DNA of 64,000 nucleotides from positions 52,080,001 to 52,144,000 of the forward strand of contig OZ024742.1 in NCBI GenBank assembly GCA_964016885.1. Reading direction: 5' to 3'. The notes beneath the pieces were generated by a model that was not told where the DNA came from, did no database searches, and was given only the letters and a program-made list of their open reading frames with translations. A program made the translations under genes and the position numbers. Of this stretch, positions 5,066 through 61,600 are shown piece by piece. Within the stretch, counting starts at the first letter, position 1. Each line of letters starts with the position of its first letter. Source of the stretch: Eledone cirrhosa. Taxonomy: Eukaryota.

Positions 5066-6339
5066 CCAATATTCCTTGCTGAAGTAGGAGTATTACATAT
5101 ATAAAGAACAAATGATACTATAATAGATATATATAAACAACATAAATTCAATAACAAATTGCAATATATTTTCATTCATTCTCACTTATATATGAATTTG
5201 TGTATCACAATCATAATTGCAAATTAATATACTCGTTGAGAAATCCTTTTTTTTTTTCTGTGTGCAATGAAATAAATATATGGGGGGAAATTCCATGAAA
5301 TTTGGTATTTCACAAATATAAAGTAACATTCAAAAAGAACTATTTATCATCGGTAAACATTACTTAAGGCTATATTTGAAAATTAATGTATTACTTAGCA
5401 TAGGCCTGGGGAATTTTCACTGATATTATCAAGCATAATAACATTTTATATAGTGTTTTTAAACTCAAATAAGCTCAACATTATCACGTAGACAAAATGG
5501 CACTGTACCATCTACACAGTTTGAAAAAGGCTAATAGATAGGCATCTGGCAAATAATAAAACTAACTTTAAAAATCAATATTGGAATCTGTTTATTTAGG
5601 CTGCAAGCAAATAAAACCTCCACACACATTTTATACAGACACTCTTTAGTTGAACCAGAAGTTGTTTTTCCCGGAATATAAGTGGAGAAAGAGTTTTGGG
5701 AAATCACAAAGAAAACATTTTATTTTCAGTCAGAAACTGATTACTATTAAGGGAAATGAAGGAGTTATATATATTTGTTTCCTATAGTCATCTATATGTA
5801 TTATTTGAAATGCCTAAATACAATTGGTTTGCGTTTAAAATAACATGTTCATGTGTAATAAATTGAAACAAAATCACACTAATTCAGATGTTGGAATGTG
5901 AATAGAATATGTTAATACAAACCAACTTTTTGCATTTTCACTCGAACCACTAGGGAACCCAATGAAATGTTTACGATTTTTTTTTTTTTTTTTTTATATT
6001 TCGTTTTTGAAAAAGCAGAAATCCTCTTTAGACTGAATAGTATAGCCCTATATAAACTATGCCTGAAATAGCCATGGAATGGTCATGCCTGTAACATATT
6101 TGATATCTTATTTAGAGAACTGTGACTATCCTGGGGCTAAACATAAACACGTATAATAGCCGTAGTCTACATATCTAACTCCTAATATAGTGCCGCATGA
6201 ACAGTAAAGTTGGCGGGTCTTTATCTGTTAATTCACCCATATCATTATACACGGCAAACAGTAACGTGAGATTTCTGAGAGATTTTGGCAGCTGTTTCTA
6301 GTAGTTCGACTGATCATATATATGCCCTCGTATTAGATC

Positions 6340-21970: not shown

Positions 21971-22326
21971 TTGAGTTTTATTATAATAATAAACATGCCT
22001 CACTAGGAATCTAGGGATCAATCTGGTAACATGATACCCTAGCCGGTTCACAAGAACAACAATTGCAATATCTATCTCCCACACATAAGAACTGACACTT
22101 GAAAATTTCGGACATATTTCGGACATATGCTTACTGGTCGGCGAAGGGAATAACTCGAATGACCGGTAACATATCAATGGCTATTTACATCTATTTCGGA
22201 TTTTTGTCTGAAGAGAACACGTAGTGCAACTGGTGTACAACTGCCACACGTCTTTGAAATACGTATAACAAAATAAATGGGGCTGGACAAATGAAACCGT
22301 TGTTCCTGTTTATTATATATATATAT

Positions 22327-40252: not shown

Positions 40253-40589
40253 GGTATCCACAGTAAGTCTATTCTGAATGAAGAACTCGATGTAATCCAT
40301 ATGTTGAAAATGTTGTAGGTTAAGATAAATCTCGGAAAACAATAAAACATTAAAAGGAAAACAGAGTCATGATATAAGTTAAAACAATGAAATAAAAAAT
40401 CAAGTCATTAGAGATATACTTCACTGCTTTACGATCGTTTGTAGATGATGATAATACATTGTAGCTAAACTCCGTTATTGATCTATGTAAGGGTAGTTAC
40501 AAAATATCAGATAAAGAGAATATTTACATACATGCATATCACCAGCTGTTTTCAAAAGCAATAATAATTTTATTCAATAATAATTTTAT

Positions 40590-42540
40590 TCCACTATGGG
40601 ATAACACTTTCCAAGTTATTGAATGGTTCACTAGCATTGGGAATAAAAACTCAGCTTCATTCATTCAATTCGACATCGATTCTTACTATTCTTCGATTTC
40701 TCCAATTCTTTTAAACAAAGCACTGATCTTTGCCAGAAATAGATCGGATTTATCAACATCATATCTCACGCTAGAAAAACCTTACTAAACTTCCAAGAAG
40801 AATACTGGACAAGAAACGCATATAACAACTTATTCGATATTACGATGGGATCCATGGACTCTGCTCAAGTTACAGAGCTCGTTGACTATTTCTCCTCTAT
40901 TACATTTATGACTATTTTCCCCACCTCAAAGGTGGTCTTTATCGGGATGATTGTCTACTGTTATCTAACAATCTTAGCAATTCCAATATAGAGAAAAACA
41001 AAAAACAAATTAGAAAATTCCTCAAGCACGATTAGAGCCTTAGCATCACTTTGAAAACACTTCAAAAGTAGCTAATTATGTTGACGTTACTTTAGACCTC
41101 TCTACGAATACTTATCAACCTTACTACAAACCTAACCAGAATCTACATTATGTACATTCACGATCTAACTACCCTGGCTCTATACTCAAGAACTTAGTAT
41201 ATAACATATCTCTTAGACTTTCTAAATTATCTTCCAATGAAGATATATTTTATAATAATGCACTCTTCTACAACGAGGCCTTAACTAGAAGTGGATATAA
41301 AGAAAAAATATCATATATCCCCAACACTACTATGCACCAAAACATAAAACCTAGCAAAAACTACAAACACCAAAAAATACCATTGAAACAAATACCTAAA
41401 GTGGGTATTCCTATTACACCAAACAACCGAAAAACCACAACAACTATTACTACACGATCTATGACCAATGTTATCCACCCACATATGAATACCAAGCACT
41501 CAAAATCTCATAATCTACCTAAAAATAACACCAAACACAACCACGGTAATTTACCAAATTCCACTAATAAGGGTACTAACCATAGGAATTCTTCTAGAAC
41601 ACAACACAATAATATAAGTGGTAATAAGAACTTAACTAAAAACCGCAAAAGAAACATAACATGGTACAACGCAGCCTTCAACCTGCAAACTATTGGACAA
41701 ATCCCCAAAATATTCTTTGAAATTGTACATAAACATTTTCCACCAAACCACAGATACCACCAAATATTTAACAAATATACTGTTAAATTCTCATACTCTA
41801 CATCAAGCAATCTCCAGCAAAAAATAAGCAACTACAACATTTATAAACTTAAAAATAATATGACTACATCACCACAACATAATTTAAATAGAACTGCACC
41901 TTTTAAAAAGGCAAATAATACAATCCTTCAACCTAGAAAACACAACCACCCAAATCACCAACACAAAAACAACAGAACACAAAATCACAATACAACCCTA
42001 GCACCAACCACCCACAAAGCAACCTTCATTCTCCTGCTATCATTAATTACAATAGGAATAGCTCAAGGATTAATGAGAATAGTATAGGCACCCCCAACAA
42101 CCATCTTACGTATGGCAGTAATTGCATAAATAGAACCATTTGCCCCTTAATTGGCAACTGTTTGATTAATAATGTAATATATAAATGCACTGTGTCTACT
42201 ACAGACTCCAACAAAACATATATAGGATCTACATCAAACACATTTAGGAAAATATTTTATGCACACTCTAGTAGTTTCAACAATACTAAACTAGCTAACA
42301 CCACATCTTTAGCTGAAGCGGTAAATAATTATAAAAAGAAAAAATAGATTTCAAGTTATCGTGGAACACCATTCTACAAAGAACACCATATCTTGGGAAC
42401 AGGAGGGAATGCAGATTATGTTCAGGGGAGATCTTGGAAATTACTAAATCTCGGACGATTAATTAAATAAAAGGCAGGAACTGATCATAGTTTGTAATCA
42501 CCGTATACGAAGAACTTTTCAATATTATAAACCTAATTAA
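40590..42540 (+). pseudogene. Frameshifted PLE RT + GIY-YIG ORF
   Basis: FDIDSYYSSISP, LFDITMGS, GGLYRDDCLL, RKRNITWYNAAFN, NCINRTICPL and YIGSTSNTF. Close paralogue of 52660-54558. Confidence 0.92.
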
Positions 42541-42871
42541 ATACTATAAACCTAATTAATATTCTAAATAGCAACTCACTATAATTATATATAGAGTAAC
42601 ATTTATTAGTACCCCTTTCCCCTAATTATATGCATTCATGCTTATTTTGTTACCTTTTAATGTTTTAGCTTCCTTAGGTTTATGCGTTAATGACTAAAGG
42701 CAACAAGGTACACAACCATCCATAATTGCATGAGTAAATATATATGTATGTATGATATGGAAATATATTTATGTATGTGTATATATATATATATATATAT
42801 ATTTATGTATGTCTAAATATGTATGTATATATATATATATATGTATATATATGTGTGTCTGTGCATGTGTG

Positions 42872-44444: not shown

Positions 44445-44889
44445 GCACACACACACATGTATATACACACACACACACGCATATACATATATATATACAT
44501 ATATACATACATATATATATAGAGATATGTACATATATATACACATATATATACATATACATATATATACATATACATATATATACAAATATATACACAT
44601 ACATACACACACATATACATACATACATATACATACATATACACACACACACACATATACACACATATACATATATATACACACATACACATACATACAC
44701 ACACATACATATATATATATATACACATATACACACATATATATACATACACATACATATACACACATACACACAAATATATACACATACAAATAAATAA
44801 GTACTCAATAAATATACGCATATACGCAGGCACATAAAAACACCTCTACAGGCAGAAAATGTAGATAGGTAAGAGGTACTCATTCTTCT

Positions 44890-45910
44890 CTAATCTAGGA
44901 TTTAGTATAACTATAGAATCTAATTTGACTAGGGCCAACTTCTTAGATGTCACTCTCGACCTAGATACTTCCCTCTATTACCCGTACCACAAACCTAACG
45001 AGTCCCTTAAATATATTAATGTTAATTCAAACCACCCCCAAAACATCACTGATAACCTAGTAAAAAGCGTCTCTATTAGAATATCTGGCCTCTCCGCCAA
45101 CAAAGATATTTTTTACACATCTGCCTCCTACTACAATGACGCCCTCGCCCGTAGCGGATTTAAAGAAAAGATAACATACCTAGAAACCACCGCAAGAATG
45201 CAGAGGAGGAATAGACATAGGCAGATTAGCAGGTACAACCCTCCCTTCAATAGAGAGGTCTCTACTCCGATAGCTAGGATTTTCTTCACTTTGCTGAAAT
45301 TACACTTCCCCATACAACATAGGTACCACACCATCTTTAATAAGAACACCATAAAACTCTCCTACTCCACCACACTTAACCTAGCTAGGAATATAGCCAA
45401 CCATAATTCTAACAAATTAAATAAGCCAACCACCTCCGAACCCAATCCCCGGACTGGGGCTCTGTGTAATTGCCTAAATAAGGAAGCATGCCCACTTGAA
45501 AACAAATGCCTCACAAATGATATCGTATACAAATGCGATGTCATCTGAGGCACCGATGATTGCAAAAAAACTTACATCGGCATGACCTCCAACAACTTTA
45601 AGACCCGTTGGTATGCCCATACCCACTCCTTCAGATGACCGGACAAATCAAACCAGACAACACCCGCCTCCTACGTTTGGGACCTCAAAAGGAACTCCAC
45701 CCCCTTCACGCTTAAATGGAAAATACTCCAGAAGCGCGCTCTTACAGCGGAGGACACAAGGGCTGCGACCTTTGTATTTCAGAGAGCTACGAAATTTTAT
45801 TCGCCAAGGGCCCGCTACTGAACAAACTCTCTAAACACTGCCCGAACTGCATGCACAAGAACTTTGCAACTTTCAAACACTTTAAGCCAGTGTTAAAGCC
45901 CGATGGCTAA
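44890..45910 (+). pseudogene. 5'-truncated PLE RT C-terminus + GIY-YIG
   Basis: NFLDVTLDL, NSNHP, RNRHRQISRYNPPFN, CNCLNKEACPL, TYIGMTSNNFKTRW and CDLCISE, with stops and frameshifts in the 3' part. Confidence 0.92.
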
Positions 45911-48538: not shown

Positions 48539-49407
48539 GATATGTGTGTATATGATTATGTGCACATGTGTAAATGTGTATTTAGGTTTGCATCTATTTG
48601 TGCGTATGTATATTTTTGGTTGGATATCAATATAACTGTACCTCTGTATATATAGTGTGGATATATGCACTTTGTAATCTATGAAATTTATGTGTTTTAA
48701 CTATGCCAACATGTATTCATAAGAGTTTGATTATTTATACAGAAACATACTTGATAGTATTTTAGGGGTATCATATGCTGTATTATACTAAGTGCAATTT
48801 ACCACACCGTACTATATTGTGTTGGTTATGTTGTATATTATCGCATTACTGTATTTCATTATCTTATTATAATTTCAATCTTTTAATATACTATCTTTCC
48901 TACCCATAAACTTAATTTATATTCACCTAAAAACTCAATACAACACTAATCACAATTTATTTTGACATTCCTTTTAAACTTCACTATATCAGATACATTC
49001 AACTATCAGTTTGACAATCCCTTTCCTCCTAATATATTTTTATGCCAATTCTACTATTAACACCATTCAACCATTCCTTTCAAAGGGTCATGTCCTGAAC
49101 TAAAGTATATTACTTTTCATCTTAACACCATATGAAAAAGACAATTTGATTCGTTAGTTCTTCAACTATCTCCAAATAAGGACAGGATACTAACATACTA
49201 CTAATTCCGAATAAAATTATTATTGCTTTTGAAAACACCTTGTGATATGCATGTAAGTAAATATTCTCTTTATCTGATATTTTGTAACTAACCTTACATA
49301 GATCAATAACAGAGTATAACTACAATGTATTATCATCACCTAGAAACGATCGTAAACAAATTGTGTGTATATATGTGTGTATGTGTATGTATATGTCTAT
49401 ATATATG

Positions 49408-52183: not shown

Positions 52184-52582
<399 letters not shown>

Positions 52583-52627
52583 TAAACAAATAATGAACAA
52601 ACAATTCCTTATATTAAACAAAAAAAG

Positions 52628-52782
52628 TTCACTATTTAACGATCGTTTCTAGGGTATATATGTGTTATAATTGGTATGCATATTTAACAGATCTATGTAC
52701 AAAATTATACAAAATTATACAAATTATCAAGATTAAATATACATACCTAACTCATATATACGCCGTCTTCAGAAATAATGAA
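52628..52782 (-). ncRNA. Long-stem-II hammerhead (antisense arm)
   Basis: Reverse complement of 57809-57963. Confidence 0.8.
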
Positions 52783-54558
52783 GTATATTTATTGATAATA
52801 ACAACAATTCAGGTAATTAATTGGTTTAAAAATATTAGGTGTAAATCTTCTGCTTCTTTCCTACAGTTTGATATAGATAATTATTATTCTTCTATATCAC
52901 CCATACTCCTGAACAAAACATTAATATTTGCTAAAAATAGATCTAATTTAACTTCGGATGACATTAACATTATTACACATGCTAGACAAACACTTATTGA
53001 ATTTCAGAATGAATACTGGACCAGAAACACTTATAGTAATCTTTTTGATATTACTATGGGTTCAAGCGATTCTGCCCAAATTACTGATCTTGTGGGCCTC
53101 TTTCTCCTTTTCAACATAAATGCCTCTTTTCCCCACCTCAAAGGTGGTTTATATCGTGATGACTGTCTTCTTCTTTCTAACAACCTTAGCCTTTCAGAAA
53201 TCGAAAAAAACAAAAAGCATATTAGAACTTTCCTTAAAGACTATTATAATCTTAATATTACTTTTGAAAAAACAAGTAAAGTAGTAAATTTCCTAGATAT
53301 AACTTTAGATTTAGCTACGGGTATATACCAACCTTACCATAAACCTAACCAAAACTTACATTACATACACTCACAATCTAATCACCCTAAATCTATCCTT
53401 AAAAACCTTGCATATAATATATCACTTAGAATTTCTAACCTTTCTTCTAACCAAGATGTATTTGATAAAAATGCGACCTTTTATAATGAAGCTCTAGATA
53501 GAAGTGGCCACAAAAATAGATTAGAGTATATACCTTCTACTAAAAATACTGAAAGCATACAGCATAATATTACCAACAAACACCAAATGAAAAGTACACA
53601 CCTAAATGCCACCCACAGTATACCCCAAAATACTAAATCTTCTAATATAAAGTATAGTAACCCTCAAAAAACTACTCATCATAAGACTATAATAAATATT
53701 AATAATAAAACTCCTAATAAAAAAGATAAAACACCTAAATCTACAAATATAACTAAAAATAGTTGTGGTGAGATCATTAACATTATTCCTCCTAGTAAAA
53801 ATCATGATACAACATATAAAAATAATAAAAATAATAAACAACATAGAAACCGTAATAGACGAGTTACTTGGTATAATGCTCCTTTTAATTTACAAGTTAA
53901 GGATAACATTGCTAAAAAATTTTTTTATATCCTTGAGAAAAACTTCCCGCCAAACCACAAATACCATCAAATCTTAAATAGGTCTACAGTTAAATTCTCA
54001 TATTCTACAACAAATAACATAAAACAAAATATAAGTGCATATAATGCATATAAATGTAAGAAAACTATAAGTATACCACCAGTACATCAAATTAACAATA
54101 ATATCTCCTCAAATACAGAATTAACGAAAGGATGTAACTGTAGAAACAAAACAAACTGCCCATTAAAAGGGAATTGTCTTGTTAACAACATAGTCTATAA
54201 ATGTAATGTTAAAACTAAAGATTCTATTTGCTCATATATAGGAGCTACCTCTAACAATTTTAAGACAAGATATAATACCCACAAACATAGCTTTAAAAAT
54301 GCCGCACTGGCTAATACAACATCTCTAGCAGAAAAAATCAATAGTTATAAAAATAAAAATATAAAATATGATTTGACCTGGAGTGTGCTCAAAAGAGCCA
54401 CCCCTTATCAAAATAATAGAAAGGAATGTAGATTATGTTCCCAAGAACTATTTGAAATAATGAAGTCTAGGGATATCTTATTAAATAAAAGACAGGAATT
54501 AATTATATCGTGTAATCATAAACTAAAAAAAACATTTAAATATTATAAACCTAATTAA
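52660..54558 (+). CDS. PLE reverse transcriptase + C-terminal GIY-YIG endonuclease, 5'-truncated (genuine PLE sequence begins ~52812)
   Basis: FDIDNYYSSIS, LFDITMGS, GLYRDD, NFLDITLDL, SNHP, CNCRNKTNCPL, IVY..YIG, RYNTH and CRLC..E..LLNKR. The first ~51 codons come from the inverted arm. Confidence 0.93.
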   Translation: MCYNWYAYLTDLCTKLYKIIQIIKIKYTYLTHIYAVFRNNEVYLLIITTIQVINWFKNIRCKSSASFLQFDIDNYYSSISPILLNKTLIFAKNRSNLTSDDINIITHARQTLIEFQNEYWTRNTYSNLFDITMGSSDSAQITDLVGLFLLFNINASFPHLKGGLYRDDCLLLSNNLSLSEIEKNKKHIRTFLKDYYNLNITFEKTSKVVNFLDITLDLATGIYQPYHKPNQNLHYIHSQSNHPKSILKNLAYNISLRISNLSSNQDVFDKNATFYNEALDRSGHKNRLEYIPSTKNTESIQHNITNKHQMKSTHLNATHSIPQNTKSSNIKYSNPQKTTHHKTIININNKTPNKKDKTPKSTNITKNSCGEIINIIPPSKNHDTTYKNNKNNKQHRNRNRRVTWYNAPFNLQVKDNIAKKFFYILEKNFPPNHKYHQILNRSTVKFSYSTTNNIKQNISAYNAYKCKKTISIPPVHQINNNISSNTELTKGCNCRNKTNCPLKGNCLVNNIVYKCNVKTKDSICSYIGATSNNFKTRYNTHKHSFKNAALANTTSLAEKINSYKNKNIKYDLTWSVLKRATPYQNNRKECRLCSQELFEIMKSRDILLNKRQELIISCNHKLKKTFKYYKPN

Positions 54559-56341
54559 TAACATTATTCTAGAATTTAATTTAATTTAAATGTTTGTTAA
54601 CCTATAAATTTAATTTTATTAATATTTTATTACAGATGAGAAAATATTATGTAATCATTAATTTTGAAAAACCTTTAAATATTACTAATATATATTCAGT
54701 AATTTAATTTATAGATTAATTTTAACTTATTTTAACCTTTTATTATAATTTTTTAATTTAGTTTAACCTTTTATTATAAATTTTTTTTATTATAATTCTT
54801 TTACAGATAAAATATAACAAAATAATATCATGTATCCTATGACGGAGAAAGAATTTTTAGTATTATTGACCTAATTAATATACATTTTGGAAATATATTT
54901 ATTATTTGGTTTTAGCTTTAATCAACCTAAAACTTTAATTTTAACTTTAATTTGCTTAAAATTAGTATCCTTGTACAGACGAATTGCAGAATGTCATGTA
55001 ATCATAGAATGGGAGGTGTTTTTGGATATATACCTAGTTAATATATTCTGTGCAAATTTTTTGAAAAAGATATGTATATCTATATGTATATGTATATGTG
55101 TGTGTTGTATGTGTATCTGTATGTATATTTATGTGACTATATATGTATGTATGTGTATATATATGTATATATATATATATATATGTGTATGTATATGTAT
55201 ATGTATGTGTATGTGTATGTATATGTATATGTATGCGTATTAATTTTGATTTTTATTTGCATATAATTATATTATGCTATTGATGAAATACAATATCTGC
55301 TTTATGTATTGTATACCTAATTAACATATACTAATTAACATATACTATTGAAATAAATATATAATTTTTAACTTAGTTAACATATAATTTATATGCTACT
55401 ACCGATGTAATACTTTATTTTATTTTTATTTGGGTTTTTTTTCCCTATTACTAAATTCATCTCCTAATATTGATACCATAACGTTATTAACTTTAATTTA
55501 GTTATAATGTAATTAATAATCTACTACTGTTTGACTTCATAATTCTGCTTCAAATATTATAAACCTAACTAATTTACACCTTGGAAATCAATATGTTGAC
55601 TATCTTTGGTTTAGTTGACATATGATTAATAGTATACTTTTTTATTTTGTGATGCATAGATTTCGTATTTCCTAGCACTGAAAATATGTAGGAACATACA
55701 TTGAATTAAGATATGGAAAATATTATATGTTTCTTGAAACATATATTTACTTTGATCCCCTTCTCCAAACCCCCCCTTTCCCCCATACTATTATCATCTG
55801 TTTTTGTAAGTGTATATGTATGAATATATGTGTAGATGGGTGTCTATATAGTTTTTTTTTGGTATTTATTTCTAAATATAAAAATACATATATGAGCATG
55901 TAAATATGAATGTAAGATTGAGTGTGTATATATGATTGTACATACATATATATGTATATATATGTATATATATGTATTATATATGTACGTGTATGTGAAT
56001 GCGTGGTATGTATATGTGTATGTATATGTATATATGTGTGTGTATGTGTATGCTTGTATATAGGAATATATATGTGTGTATATATGTATATATATGTATA
56101 TGCGTGTTTGTATGTATGTGTATATGGGTTCTGTATATATTTGTATGTCTCTCTATTTATATGTTTATCTTCGTATCTATGTGATATATGTGTGTGTGTG
56201 TGCACGTATGCATATGTATGTGTTTGTGTGTGTTTGTATGTGTGTGTGTATATATATATATGTATTTGCGCACACTCACATACACATTTATATATATATA
56301 TATATATATGTGAGTGTGTATGTGTGTCTGTATGTGTGTGC

Positions 56342-56379
<38 letters not shown>

Positions 56380-56409
56380 GTGTATGTATGTATATGTGTG
56401 TGTATATAG

Positions 56410-56443
<34 letters not shown>

Positions 56444-56586
56444 GTGTATATAGGTGTCTATGTGTGAATATATGTCTTTATTCGTATGTGTGTATTTATA
56501 TATGTTTATATTTAGGTGTATGTATGTATGTGTATGTATGTATGTATGTGTATGTATATGTATGTATATGTGTATATGTGTGTATA

Positions 56587-56623
<37 letters not shown>

Positions 56624-56834
56624 CTTTATTATTATTGTAATATAACTTATGTGTATATGTGTATAAGTGAGGTTGTGTATGTATATATACTATGTGTATA
56701 TATAAGAGTAATGAAATATATATATATATATATATATGTGCATGTCTGTATTTTATGTGTGTGTGTGTATATATATATGTGTATGTGTGTATATATGTAT
56801 GTATATATACATATGTGTGTACGTGTGTGTATGT

Positions 56835-56881
<47 letters not shown>

Positions 56882-56992
56882 TGGATGTTTGTATGTGTTT
56901 TTATGGTGGTATGAGTGTGGGATATATATGTTTGTGTATAAATGTATGTATGTGTATGTATATATATATGAGTCTACGTGTGTGTGTGTATA

Positions 56993-57039
<47 letters not shown>

Positions 57040-57808
57040 ATGTATGTATGTGTTGCGCGTGTGTGTGTCCGTATTTATATCTTTTTATATGTGTATGTGT
57101 ATGTTCGTGTAAATGTATGTGTGTGTATGACAGTATAGGTATGTGTGTATGTATGTATGTATAGATATCTCTATGTGCGCGTACATGTATGTATGTGTAT
57201 GTATATCTGTATGCGTATGTACATTATATTATATGTATTATATTTTATTGTTTTTATTTTTTTATTTTTCATAATTTATAGATACATTTATATTAAGGTT
57301 GTCTGGTCTGACAGTCTAATACTGACCCCTCCCCCCCCCTCCCACCTAATTTCTGTATCTTGATCTTGAAATGTGTGTACCAGTGTGTTTATGTGAGTGA
57401 CTTAATTTCTATTTGCTTATGATTTTATATCCACATATATAAATGTGAGTGGGGGAGTGTGTGTGTTTGTGTGTTCGTGGTTATGTGTATATTTATATAT
57501 ATACGAACATGTATGTGTGATTATACTGATATGTGTGAGTATGAAAAAAATATATTTATATGCTTGACTCCATAAGTATCATTGCGTATCTTATCAGCGC
57601 ATTAAGCTTACAGAGATATTAACCTTGAAATTTTTTATTTGCATCCATCTTTTTAGTATGCACATACAGATTATACACACATTATTGTAAAATGTGTGTA
57701 GGGTTTTACATGTATATACACACACCAAACTGCTTTTTAACCCTTTGTGTTTTCATTGGTCAATTTTGAACTGATATTTTGAATTGTTGTTATTATCAAT
57801 AAATATAC

Positions 57809-57963
57809 TTCATTATTTCTGAAGACGGCGTATATATGAGTTAGGTATGTATATTTAATCTTGATAATTTGTATAATTTTGTATAATTTTGTACATAGAT
57901 CTGTTAAATATGCATACCAATTATAACACATATATACCCTAGAAACGATCGTTAAATAGTGAA
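57809..57963 (+). ncRNA. Type-I hammerhead with 116-nt stem II insertion
   Basis: TTCATTATTT-CTGAAGA-[116 nt hairpin]-GAAAC-GATC-GTT^-AAATAGTGAA. Confidence 0.82.
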
Positions 57964-58354
57964 CTTTTTTTGTTTAATATAAGGAATTGTTTGTTCATTA
58001 TTTGTTTAATATTTTATCTTGACTCTGTATACCGTTTATCTTTCACCGAAATTGGATTTTCATTACATCTCTTCTTTCCATGATATCCGGAATACATTGA
58101 GTTCTTCATACGGATTGGACACTACCGTAAACTCTTGGTAGATTTATCTACATATATATATATATATATATAATAGGATATGTGTTCCTACACGCACAAA
58201 GCACTAAGGGACACATGTATTGTCCAATCATATGCCAATGTGGTTCAATGGCAGGTTAATAAATTAACGAGCCAGAACATATATAATCAGGTTTAGCAAA
58301 TAATGAAAAAGTTTCAAAATATATTTTAGAAAATTTACTTTACTTACTATAGTT

Positions 58355-58438
58355 ACCTTTACCGAATCGGTTTCGAATCTCAAAAATAAACGGAGACCAT
58401 ACGGCCTTCGTTGCAAAGAAAGATTCTCGTCAGAAGGT
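58355..58438 (-). ncRNA. Complete type-I hammerhead with large stem II loop, in a solo pseudo-LTR (~58171-58635)
   Basis: ACCTT-CTGACGA-GAATCT..AGATTC-GAAACCG-ATT-CGGTA^-AAGGT. Confidence 0.87.
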
Positions 58439-61470: not shown

Positions 61471-61600
61471 TCATCATTTTACGACCGTTTCTAGGATGTG
61501 TGTTGGCATGTATATCATATAGATCTATGTAAAAATATTACAAATTATCAGAAGAAATATACATACCTTCACATATACATGCTGTCCTCAGAAATGATGA
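61471..61600 (-). ncRNA. Type-I hammerhead with 93-nt stem II insertion, in a rearranged solo pLTR (61424-61774)
   Basis: TCATCATTT-CTGAGGA-[93 nt]-GAAAC-GGTC-GTA^-AAATGATGA. The adjacent tail catacggattggacacta..gatttatctaca matches 58107-58154. Confidence 0.82.

Follow-up and report, generated by a model that had tools for sequence, protein, structure and literature searches.

In Hydra-clade Penelope-like elements (PLEs), hammerhead ribozymes are of type I, lie in sense orientation at the 3′ end, have a short stem III and frequently an unpaired pair at the foot of stem II, and carry stem II arms of ~11 to 25 nt; the elements, which include Hydra-1_oBim and are under 3 kb, insert into (TA)n and occur with tandem and inverted pseudo-LTRs (pLTRs) (PMC8557442). 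The longest entry in File S2 of that paper, at ~52 nt, is flagged there as deviating and belongs to a non-Hydra element, PLE-X1_sMoe, and the paper treats the role of PLE hammerheads as an open question. The minimal, dimer-type PLE hammerheads of PMC4209133 have a palindromic 15.2-16.2/loop 3 segment with its dimer logic, a longer-than-canonical helix II of 6 to 8 bp in which G10.1-C11.1 is conserved, an additional nucleotide at the foot of stem II, and a U3-A8 variant that is known as a compensatory covariation of the core. For the PAc element (Poseidon), the hammerhead cut only with PLE protein present, the main template was the uncut RNA, two RT start sites gave a "tail" at an AT-rich target, and protein binding was located within the initial 172 nt of the ORF, which overlap the hammerhead, and not on a long arm (PMC11167929). 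A weak stem III is tolerated in the natural variants of PMC3088659 and in axolotl HHR_Amex2 (PMC7229834), as is U.U at 10.1/11.1; the ribozymes described there have a short stem II, and neither a C.A mismatch nor a long arm nor editing is mentioned in their descriptions.

The hammerhead analyzed here, from a 64,000-nt window (the whole stretch of DNA that was analyzed), shares with the Hydra-clade ribozymes the type, orientation, 3′ position, short stem III, stem II irregularity, target and pLTR arrangement, and with the dimer-type ones the palindrome, the lengthened helix II, the extra base and the U3-A8 variant. It differs from both in stem II, a rod of ~30 to 40 bp (60 to 116 nt) that contains a conserved internal loop; compared with the PMC4209133 hammerheads it also lacks the 10.1-11.1 pair and has a longer stem I, of 9 to 10 bp. 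The family A unit, at 6.06 kb, exceeds the Hydra elements of PMC8557442. Like PAc it has two ends next to an AT-rich target and, by inference, an uncut RNA template, but the PAc hammerhead overlaps the start codon (PMC11167929), whereas this one lies ~340 nt upstream of it, with the two ends 137 nt apart, and protein-assisted cutting, demonstrated for PAc, is here a proposal. Among the papers listed by our literature searches, none describes a PLE stem II of 60 to 120 nt, which favors the suggestion of the earlier note that the architecture may be undescribed, although the supplementary figures of PMC4209133 and the Terminon paper could hold some. The copy in the window is a 5′-truncated element (52810-58154), and its 5′ end carries a piece of pLTR in inverted orientation:

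52574-52811, minus strand: inverted fragment of a pLTR that holds an identical hammerhead (52628-52782) and stops at the +64 site
52810-54558, plus strand: 5′-truncated RT and GIY-YIG ORF, from about amino acid 232 of 813
54559-57808, plus strand: microsatellite-rich 3′ region of the element, ~3.2 kb
57809-57963, plus strand: type I hammerhead of family A, in the 3′ pLTR, sense to the ORF
57954-58154, plus strand: pLTR tail; copies end at +64 (58017) or +201 (58154)

The open frame extends from 52618 to 54558, its first 65 codons deriving from the inverted pLTR. In the genome, family A units, some of them in tandem at ~6.06 kb, encode an intact 813-aa protein; of 716 candidate matches 40 were scored, and all 40 show 100% identity across 196 nt. 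The protein carries RWR at aa 37 and DKT at aa 115 (an RWK-type motif), CNCRNKTNC at 673 (the CxCX5C linker), YIG at 707, CRLC at 771 (CxxC) and CNH at 799 (CxH); a pattern search for the CCHH endonuclease motif found no close His pair after aa 500. Together with the pLTRs, the tandem and inverted copies and the insertion into (TA)n, these hallmarks match the definition of the Hydra clade in section 11 of PMC8557442 and agree with the previously proposed location in a Hydra-like pseudo-LTR. Pfam returned no family for P0001 and a single sub-threshold match for P0002. We also observe a low-complexity stretch rich in Asn, Lys, Thr and His between the RT and the linker (~aa 470 to 585; window ~53520-53870), which makes the family A protein ~110 aa longer than most relatives (~700 aa).

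Most family A copies terminate at a (TA)n run, either +64 or +201 from the predicted cut. Among the copies examined, none breaks or starts exactly at this cut, and the sequence continues through it. By analogy with PAc, the two ends may mark where RT starts on RNA that is uncut or has been religated. The tail itself (57954-58154) is predicted to fold into stems, with a terminal GGTAGA/TCTAC hairpin that is common to family B.

The main copy is built as follows:

57819-57825, plus strand: 5′ strand of the core, CUGAAGA (C3 to A9)
57826-57941, plus strand: stem II rod of 116 nt, with a basal C10.1.A11.1 mismatch and a C.C mismatch at 10.4
57942-57953, plus strand: GAAA, then a stem III of 2 bp capped by a palindromic loop; the cut is predicted 3′ of U57953

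Stem I of family A pairs TTCATTATTT with AAATAGTGAA over 10 bp, including one G.U, the GAAA begins at 57942, 116 nt beyond the core CTGAAGA, and stem III reads AC-GATC-GT, with H17 at 57953. The segment AACGAUCGUU, with the palindromic stem III loop, is self-complementary (computed duplex energy, -13.8 kcal/mol). The NUH triplet is GUU in family A and GUA in families B and C, and A15.1-U16.1 is present. All coordinates of the layout given in the earlier note (10-bp stem I, CTGAAGA, 116-nt insert, GAAAC-GATC-GTT) agree, and the insert does form the long rod described there, both named arms pairing in a stem II fold of -42.9 kcal/mol (z -5.69) that none of 200 shuffles equals; the hammerhead fold, when forced on the main copy, costs +1.2 kcal/mol. 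At 10.1/11.1 the main copy has a C.A mismatch, not a pair.

With respect to class, we find a core with the 3-8 pair, the NUH triplet, a covarying open stem I and a palindromic stem III, as in type I hammerheads of the PLE dimer type, whereas the Watson-Crick 10.1-11.1 pair of the canonical consensus is absent, with C.A in 14/16 representatives of families A, B and C (ABC) and mostly U.U or A.A in families D and E (DE), where 4/20 are paired. Rfam models gave no match at the gathering score in six loci of these hammerheads and, over the window, no hammerhead among 150 of 220 rows, only microsatellite-driven miRNA matches. Without that pair and without an Rfam score, the predicted ribozyme at 57809-57963, which belongs to type I by its core and its stems I and III, is a variant outside the canonical consensus. 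Since the arm hides such ribozymes from Rfam models, genomic hammerhead counts are probably too low in genomes of this kind.

The fold shows the covariation that had been proposed as a check on it. Among 16 representatives of ABC subfamilies, 95.8% of 528 cells in stems I and II are paired, 11/33 pairs change on both sides, and 0/500 shuffles reach the score, compared with 23 to 57% paired in slid-register controls; these counts are of sequences rather than events and are inflated by kinship, the 16 rows representing ~5 lineages. Many pair changes are one-sided wobble changes. RNAalifold recovered just 7 pairs from the DE alignment because of misalignment, and pairs in DE were therefore counted from anchored positions instead. 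In family C, C3-G8 is replaced by U3-A8 in 535 pattern matches (control, 0), with A, C or T at N7; GAAAC is invariant and stem III is palindromic. Given the family C swap, the core is, judged by its sequences, under selection. The predicted dimer has an energy of -100.6 kcal/mol versus -85.8 kcal/mol for two monomers.

The arm also contains a conserved internal loop, which in the main copy consists of two strands:

57865-57868, plus strand: 5′ strand of the loop, UAAU (U-A, A.G, N.A, U.U)
57896-57899, plus strand: 3′ strand of the loop, UAGA, whose AG doubles as the acceptor-like site of the intron alternative below

This 3x3 internal loop (A.G, N.A, and U.U or U.G), closed by a Watson-Crick pair, is common to four arm types of dissimilar sequence, namely ABC, DE, F and G. 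The A.G is found in 16/16 ABC and 18/20 DE representatives and the U.U in 16/16 and 20/20, and the GC-rich family F has A.G in 8/8, G.A in 8/8 and U.G in 7/8; as the loop was defined on ABC and DE and relaxed for F, G is the sole fresh test. The minimum-energy fold accommodates the loop in 9/12 family representatives, including G, while skeleton-preserving shuffles do so in 0 to 4 of 150. Two long-arm families are without it (I has none, and in J it would cost +12.8 kcal/mol), and the D2 representative pays 1.7 kcal/mol. DE arms appear, by eye, to hold two such loops. Across ORFs that are only 30 to 41% alike, the unpaired loop bases are better conserved than the flanking stems. These results bear out the idea that stem II carries an extra conserved element; of the shared apical motif that had been proposed, the internal loop stands as common to the long-arm families, while the longer motif is mostly lineage-specific sequence.

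The distance from loop to core varies from 13 nt (F) through 15 to 22 nt (DE) to 37 to 42 nt (ABC); such variation speaks for a protein site rather than for a fixed tertiary contact. The loop is thus likely a docking site for a protein, and its partner would most likely be the RT-endonuclease of the element itself. A K-turn or SECIS core, for which the consensus is a 3-nt bulge, a canonical stem and tandem sheared G.A pairs, was also considered and rejected: by eye, ABC has no canonical stem in that register, and the proximal DE loop has no GA/GA register.

Long arms are abundant in this genome. A pattern of the form CTGANGA-N-GAAACNATYGT, which leaves stem I unscored, was compared with its reversed form as a control and gave 15,781 matches for arms of 91 to 120 nt (control, 46), 6,859 for 60 to 90 nt (control, 59) and 8,689 for 8 to 37 nt (control, 59). 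Among 100 listed matches of the 91- to 120-nt pattern, 83 belong by eye to the ABC superfamily and 98 are long-arm hammerheads. The count for 38 to 59 nt (13,802; control, 1,002) was discarded, since 34/100 listed matches are one repeat resembling RT-coding DNA, so that the reversed pattern is no guard against repeats; this abundant repeat fits the loose hammerhead pattern fortuitously. We excluded family H (65 nt), which by eye is a short hammerhead preceded by another CTGANGA.

As an outgroup we used metagenome contigs with related ORFs, in which a scan reaching arms of up to ~140 nt called a hammerhead in 51/77 loci, all with arms of 10 to 25 nt, and made no call in 26. This is in line with the published Hydra list and with the earlier statement that PLE hammerheads are normally short-armed. 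In a FastTree analysis, the ORFs of this genome form one clade (support 1.0), within which those of long-arm ABC, D and G group together (SH-like support 0.974), apart from a short-arm family and long-arm J; the tree includes 29/77 outgroup loci, all metagenome relatives, leaves out families E, F and I, and has D2 at 233/670 columns. The EN regions of the D and G ORFs are only ~30 to 41% identical to that of A. Short arms are themselves abundant here (the 8,689 matches above) and one precedes a Hydra ORF in locus L225, indicating that the long arm is not needed by all such elements.

Family I (L176, L179, L192, L196, L154 and L233), whose link to an ORF is weak, has a stem II of 93 to 97 nt that is predicted to form a three-way junction with two hairpins. 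Family F (L098-L121, L123) has a GC-rich arm of 60 to 63 nt, and many of its copies form inverted pairs spaced by a few hundred bases. No closely linked ORF was found for it in the loci checked; it is possibly non-autonomous.

Within the window, the long-armed relatives previously reported at 61.5, 40.4 and 49.2 kb do exist, but as worn copies:

61471-61600, minus strand: family B copy with a 93-nt arm, worn (loop 3 GGTC), at the inverted end of a short insertion
40421-40564, minus strand: family C copy with a 107-nt arm, U3-A8 core and G12>C, at the inverted 5′ end of a broken element
49220-49356, plus strand: family C copy with a 107-nt arm, U3-A8 core and a damaged 3′ strand of stem I
40606-42556, plus strand: frameshifted pieces of a family C ORF, 43 to 73% identical to family A

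Compared with its commonest relatives, the family B copy is shorter by 6 nt. The core of both family C copies reads TTGAAAA (U3-A8) rather than CTGANGA, and the copy at 49.2 kb lacks the AAGCAGT strand of stem I and keeps just 2 bp beside the core. The earlier list missed the identical minus-strand copy at 52628-52782. The window is dense in hammerhead motifs: a further type I hammerhead, with a core start at 58433 (-), a 52-nt stem II and a 4-bp stem III, has close copies in L103 and L232, and hammerheads or hammerhead-like motifs with arms of ~11 to 41 nt occur at 22208 (+), 2548 (-), ~25480 (+), ~38190 (-) and ~52360 (-).

Six sequencing runs contain the stretch, none of them recorded as RNA, and we compared four (X1, X4, X5 and X6), of which X5 and X6 are too shallow. 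X4 comprises 88 million letters, is of unrecorded type and comes from a different sample than X1. We observe 13 A>G sites in X4 versus 5 in X1, with other change types equal in number and no T>C. Seven of the eight extra X4 sites lie inside the hammerhead (7/55 A inside versus 1/88 outside; Fisher P = 0.005, the sites not being independent), unlike read depth, which peaks outside it. Two of the three strongest sites fall on the core and the base of the rod:

57941-57945, plus strand: A11.1 (57941) and A15.1 (57945), A>G in 297/1042 and 349/1184 of X4 contig depth, 0 in X1

The strongest are 57858 (35%), A15.1 (30%) and A11.1 (29%), all 0 in X1, where these fractions are contig depths pooled over subfamilies, from one run, one family and unmatched samples. 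A11.1 lies in a UAG context, opposite C. Inosine at 15.1 probably lowers hammerhead cutting. We consider it likely that the X4 pattern reflects sense-strand A-to-I editing on a local hairpin. Hairpins formed by repeats are frequently edited by ADAR, and octopus ranks as the most hyper-edited species in Table 1 of PMC5625713, so the editing may be incidental. In the DNA-like run X1 the edited bases stand at 0, which gives no visible sign that edited RNA serves as template.

The reading that we prefer, and to which we give about an even chance, is that of a hammerhead gated by dimer formation and assisted by protein, in which the docking loop is presented by the long arm and editing is a side effect of the host. 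Tandem element units would be transcribed, and the 2-bp palindromic stem III would permit cutting only upon pairing of two hammerheads, with a protein at the loop gating the predicted cut. RNA left uncut, or religated, at the 3′ hammerhead would serve target-primed reverse transcription at (TA)n, whereas cut RNA would become monomers or circles. The long duplex would be edited by ADAR at A11.1 and A15.1, as one run suggests; editing of A15.1 would probably lower cutting, and editing of A11.1 would close the C10.1.A11.1 mismatch.

Of the alternatives, the one that survives best, though we hold it unlikely, supposes that stem II hides a spliceosomal donor by pairing, the site in the main copy being:

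57845-57850, plus strand: donor-like hexamer GTATGT, paired inside the arm

The intron could be a 42- to 54-nt one nested in stem II and ending at the loop TAG, or a longer 5′-UTR intron reaching from the arm towards the ATG and removing the cut site, or the donor-like site could only recruit U1; folding would then toggle between spliced mRNA and intron-retaining template. A hexamer GTA-GT (GTATGT, GTAAGT or GTAGGT, with only +4 varying) does occur 17 to 19 nt into the arm in 16/16 ABC representatives, followed 42 to 54 nt further on by YATAG, and it is kept in family C despite imperfect pairing there. DE families likewise have GTAWT...TAG at near-constant spacing, with 39 nt between the motif halves in 19/20. 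Yet the upstream donor is not retained in D2 or E, GTATGT is frequent in the GT/AT-rich DNA of this region, and the loop motif accounts for the TAG, which is GAG in family F. An intron of 42 nt would also be very short for an animal. Exact removal of the segment is seen in 0/24 short genomic derivatives, and no 57844>57899 joint is listed in the contigs of X4 (depth ~200 to 800), X1, X5 or X6, although contigs drop rare forms, the run types are unrecorded and the read comparison reaches acceptors up to 58150. The PLE literature offers a precedent, in that pLTRs contain retained introns and a D. virilis intron end overlaps the hammerhead (PMC4209133).

The editing data admit a second alternative, in which the hammerhead is under host control: the arm would recruit ADAR, and possibly U1, editing at A11.1 and A15.1 would switch cutting, and the loop would dock the telomerase-like RT. 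We regard this combination as doubtful. Our literature search found no paper tying ADAR editing to ribozyme control or reporting editing of PLE hammerheads. If true, it would amount to an editing-regulated ribozyme in more than 10,000 genomic copies.

It is also conceivable, if improbable, that the long arm is a tolerated expansion, stem II having grown by slippage in AT-rich DNA, with pairing that merely spares the core from misfolding and a loop that is inherited and functionless. Arm length does vary widely across families (11 to 116 nt), a short tandem duplication has arisen in the apical loop of family A, long arms without the conserved loop exist in families I and J, and the one-sided wobble changes noted above fit as well. 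Shortened ABC arms, for their part, give only 24 genome matches, with scattered breakpoints. Against slippage stands the persistence of the unpaired loop bases beyond that of their flanking stems, between ORFs as divergent as those compared here, together with the seemingly doubled loop of DE arms and the presence of the loop in GC-rich F.

Rather improbable, in our judgment, is a selected ADAR switch, in which the arm exists to recruit ADAR, editing of A15.1 disables the cut and editing of A11.1 closes the C.A as C-I. It would explain why A11.1 and A15.1 rank among the three sites with the largest X4-only change, the latter part of a pair described as usually essential (PMC3088659), and why C10.1.A11.1 is kept in 14/16 ABC representatives. 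However, the editing is seen in a single run of unrecorded type, in such hosts any long repeat hairpin gets edited, DE families mostly have U.U or A.A at 10.1/11.1, and the switch leaves the conserved loop unexplained. A motif that has ceased to cut and acts solely as a handle of folded RNA is very improbable: genomic copies read through the predicted cut, 10.1/11.1 is mismatched, and insertion of PAc in vitro did not require cutting (PMC11167929), but the U3-A8 swap with a free N7, the invariant GAAAC and the palindromic stem III are what selection on an active fold would be expected to leave.

To the question of what PLE hammerheads do, this clade brings a conserved, separable module, carried by a young element of which intact tandem copies exist. 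A conserved loop that binds RT would be relevant to the sister group of telomerases, and if editing at A15.1 and A11.1 holds, it would link ADAR to ribozyme control.

We further observe a different Hydra-type family at 44865-45889 (+), 41 to 50% identical to A and lying within the 3′ region of family C elements. The same family occurs in L225 (5203-7737) with an 844-codon open frame and a hammerhead with a 20-nt arm ~200 nt upstream. In three families, a CCCA...GTTGAGC stretch lies 25 to 55 nt upstream of the ATG (L032, ~745-770; L227, ~6415-6390, minus strand; L225, ~5183-5200), and in two of the three it has, by eye, the potential to form a GCTC/GAGC hairpin.
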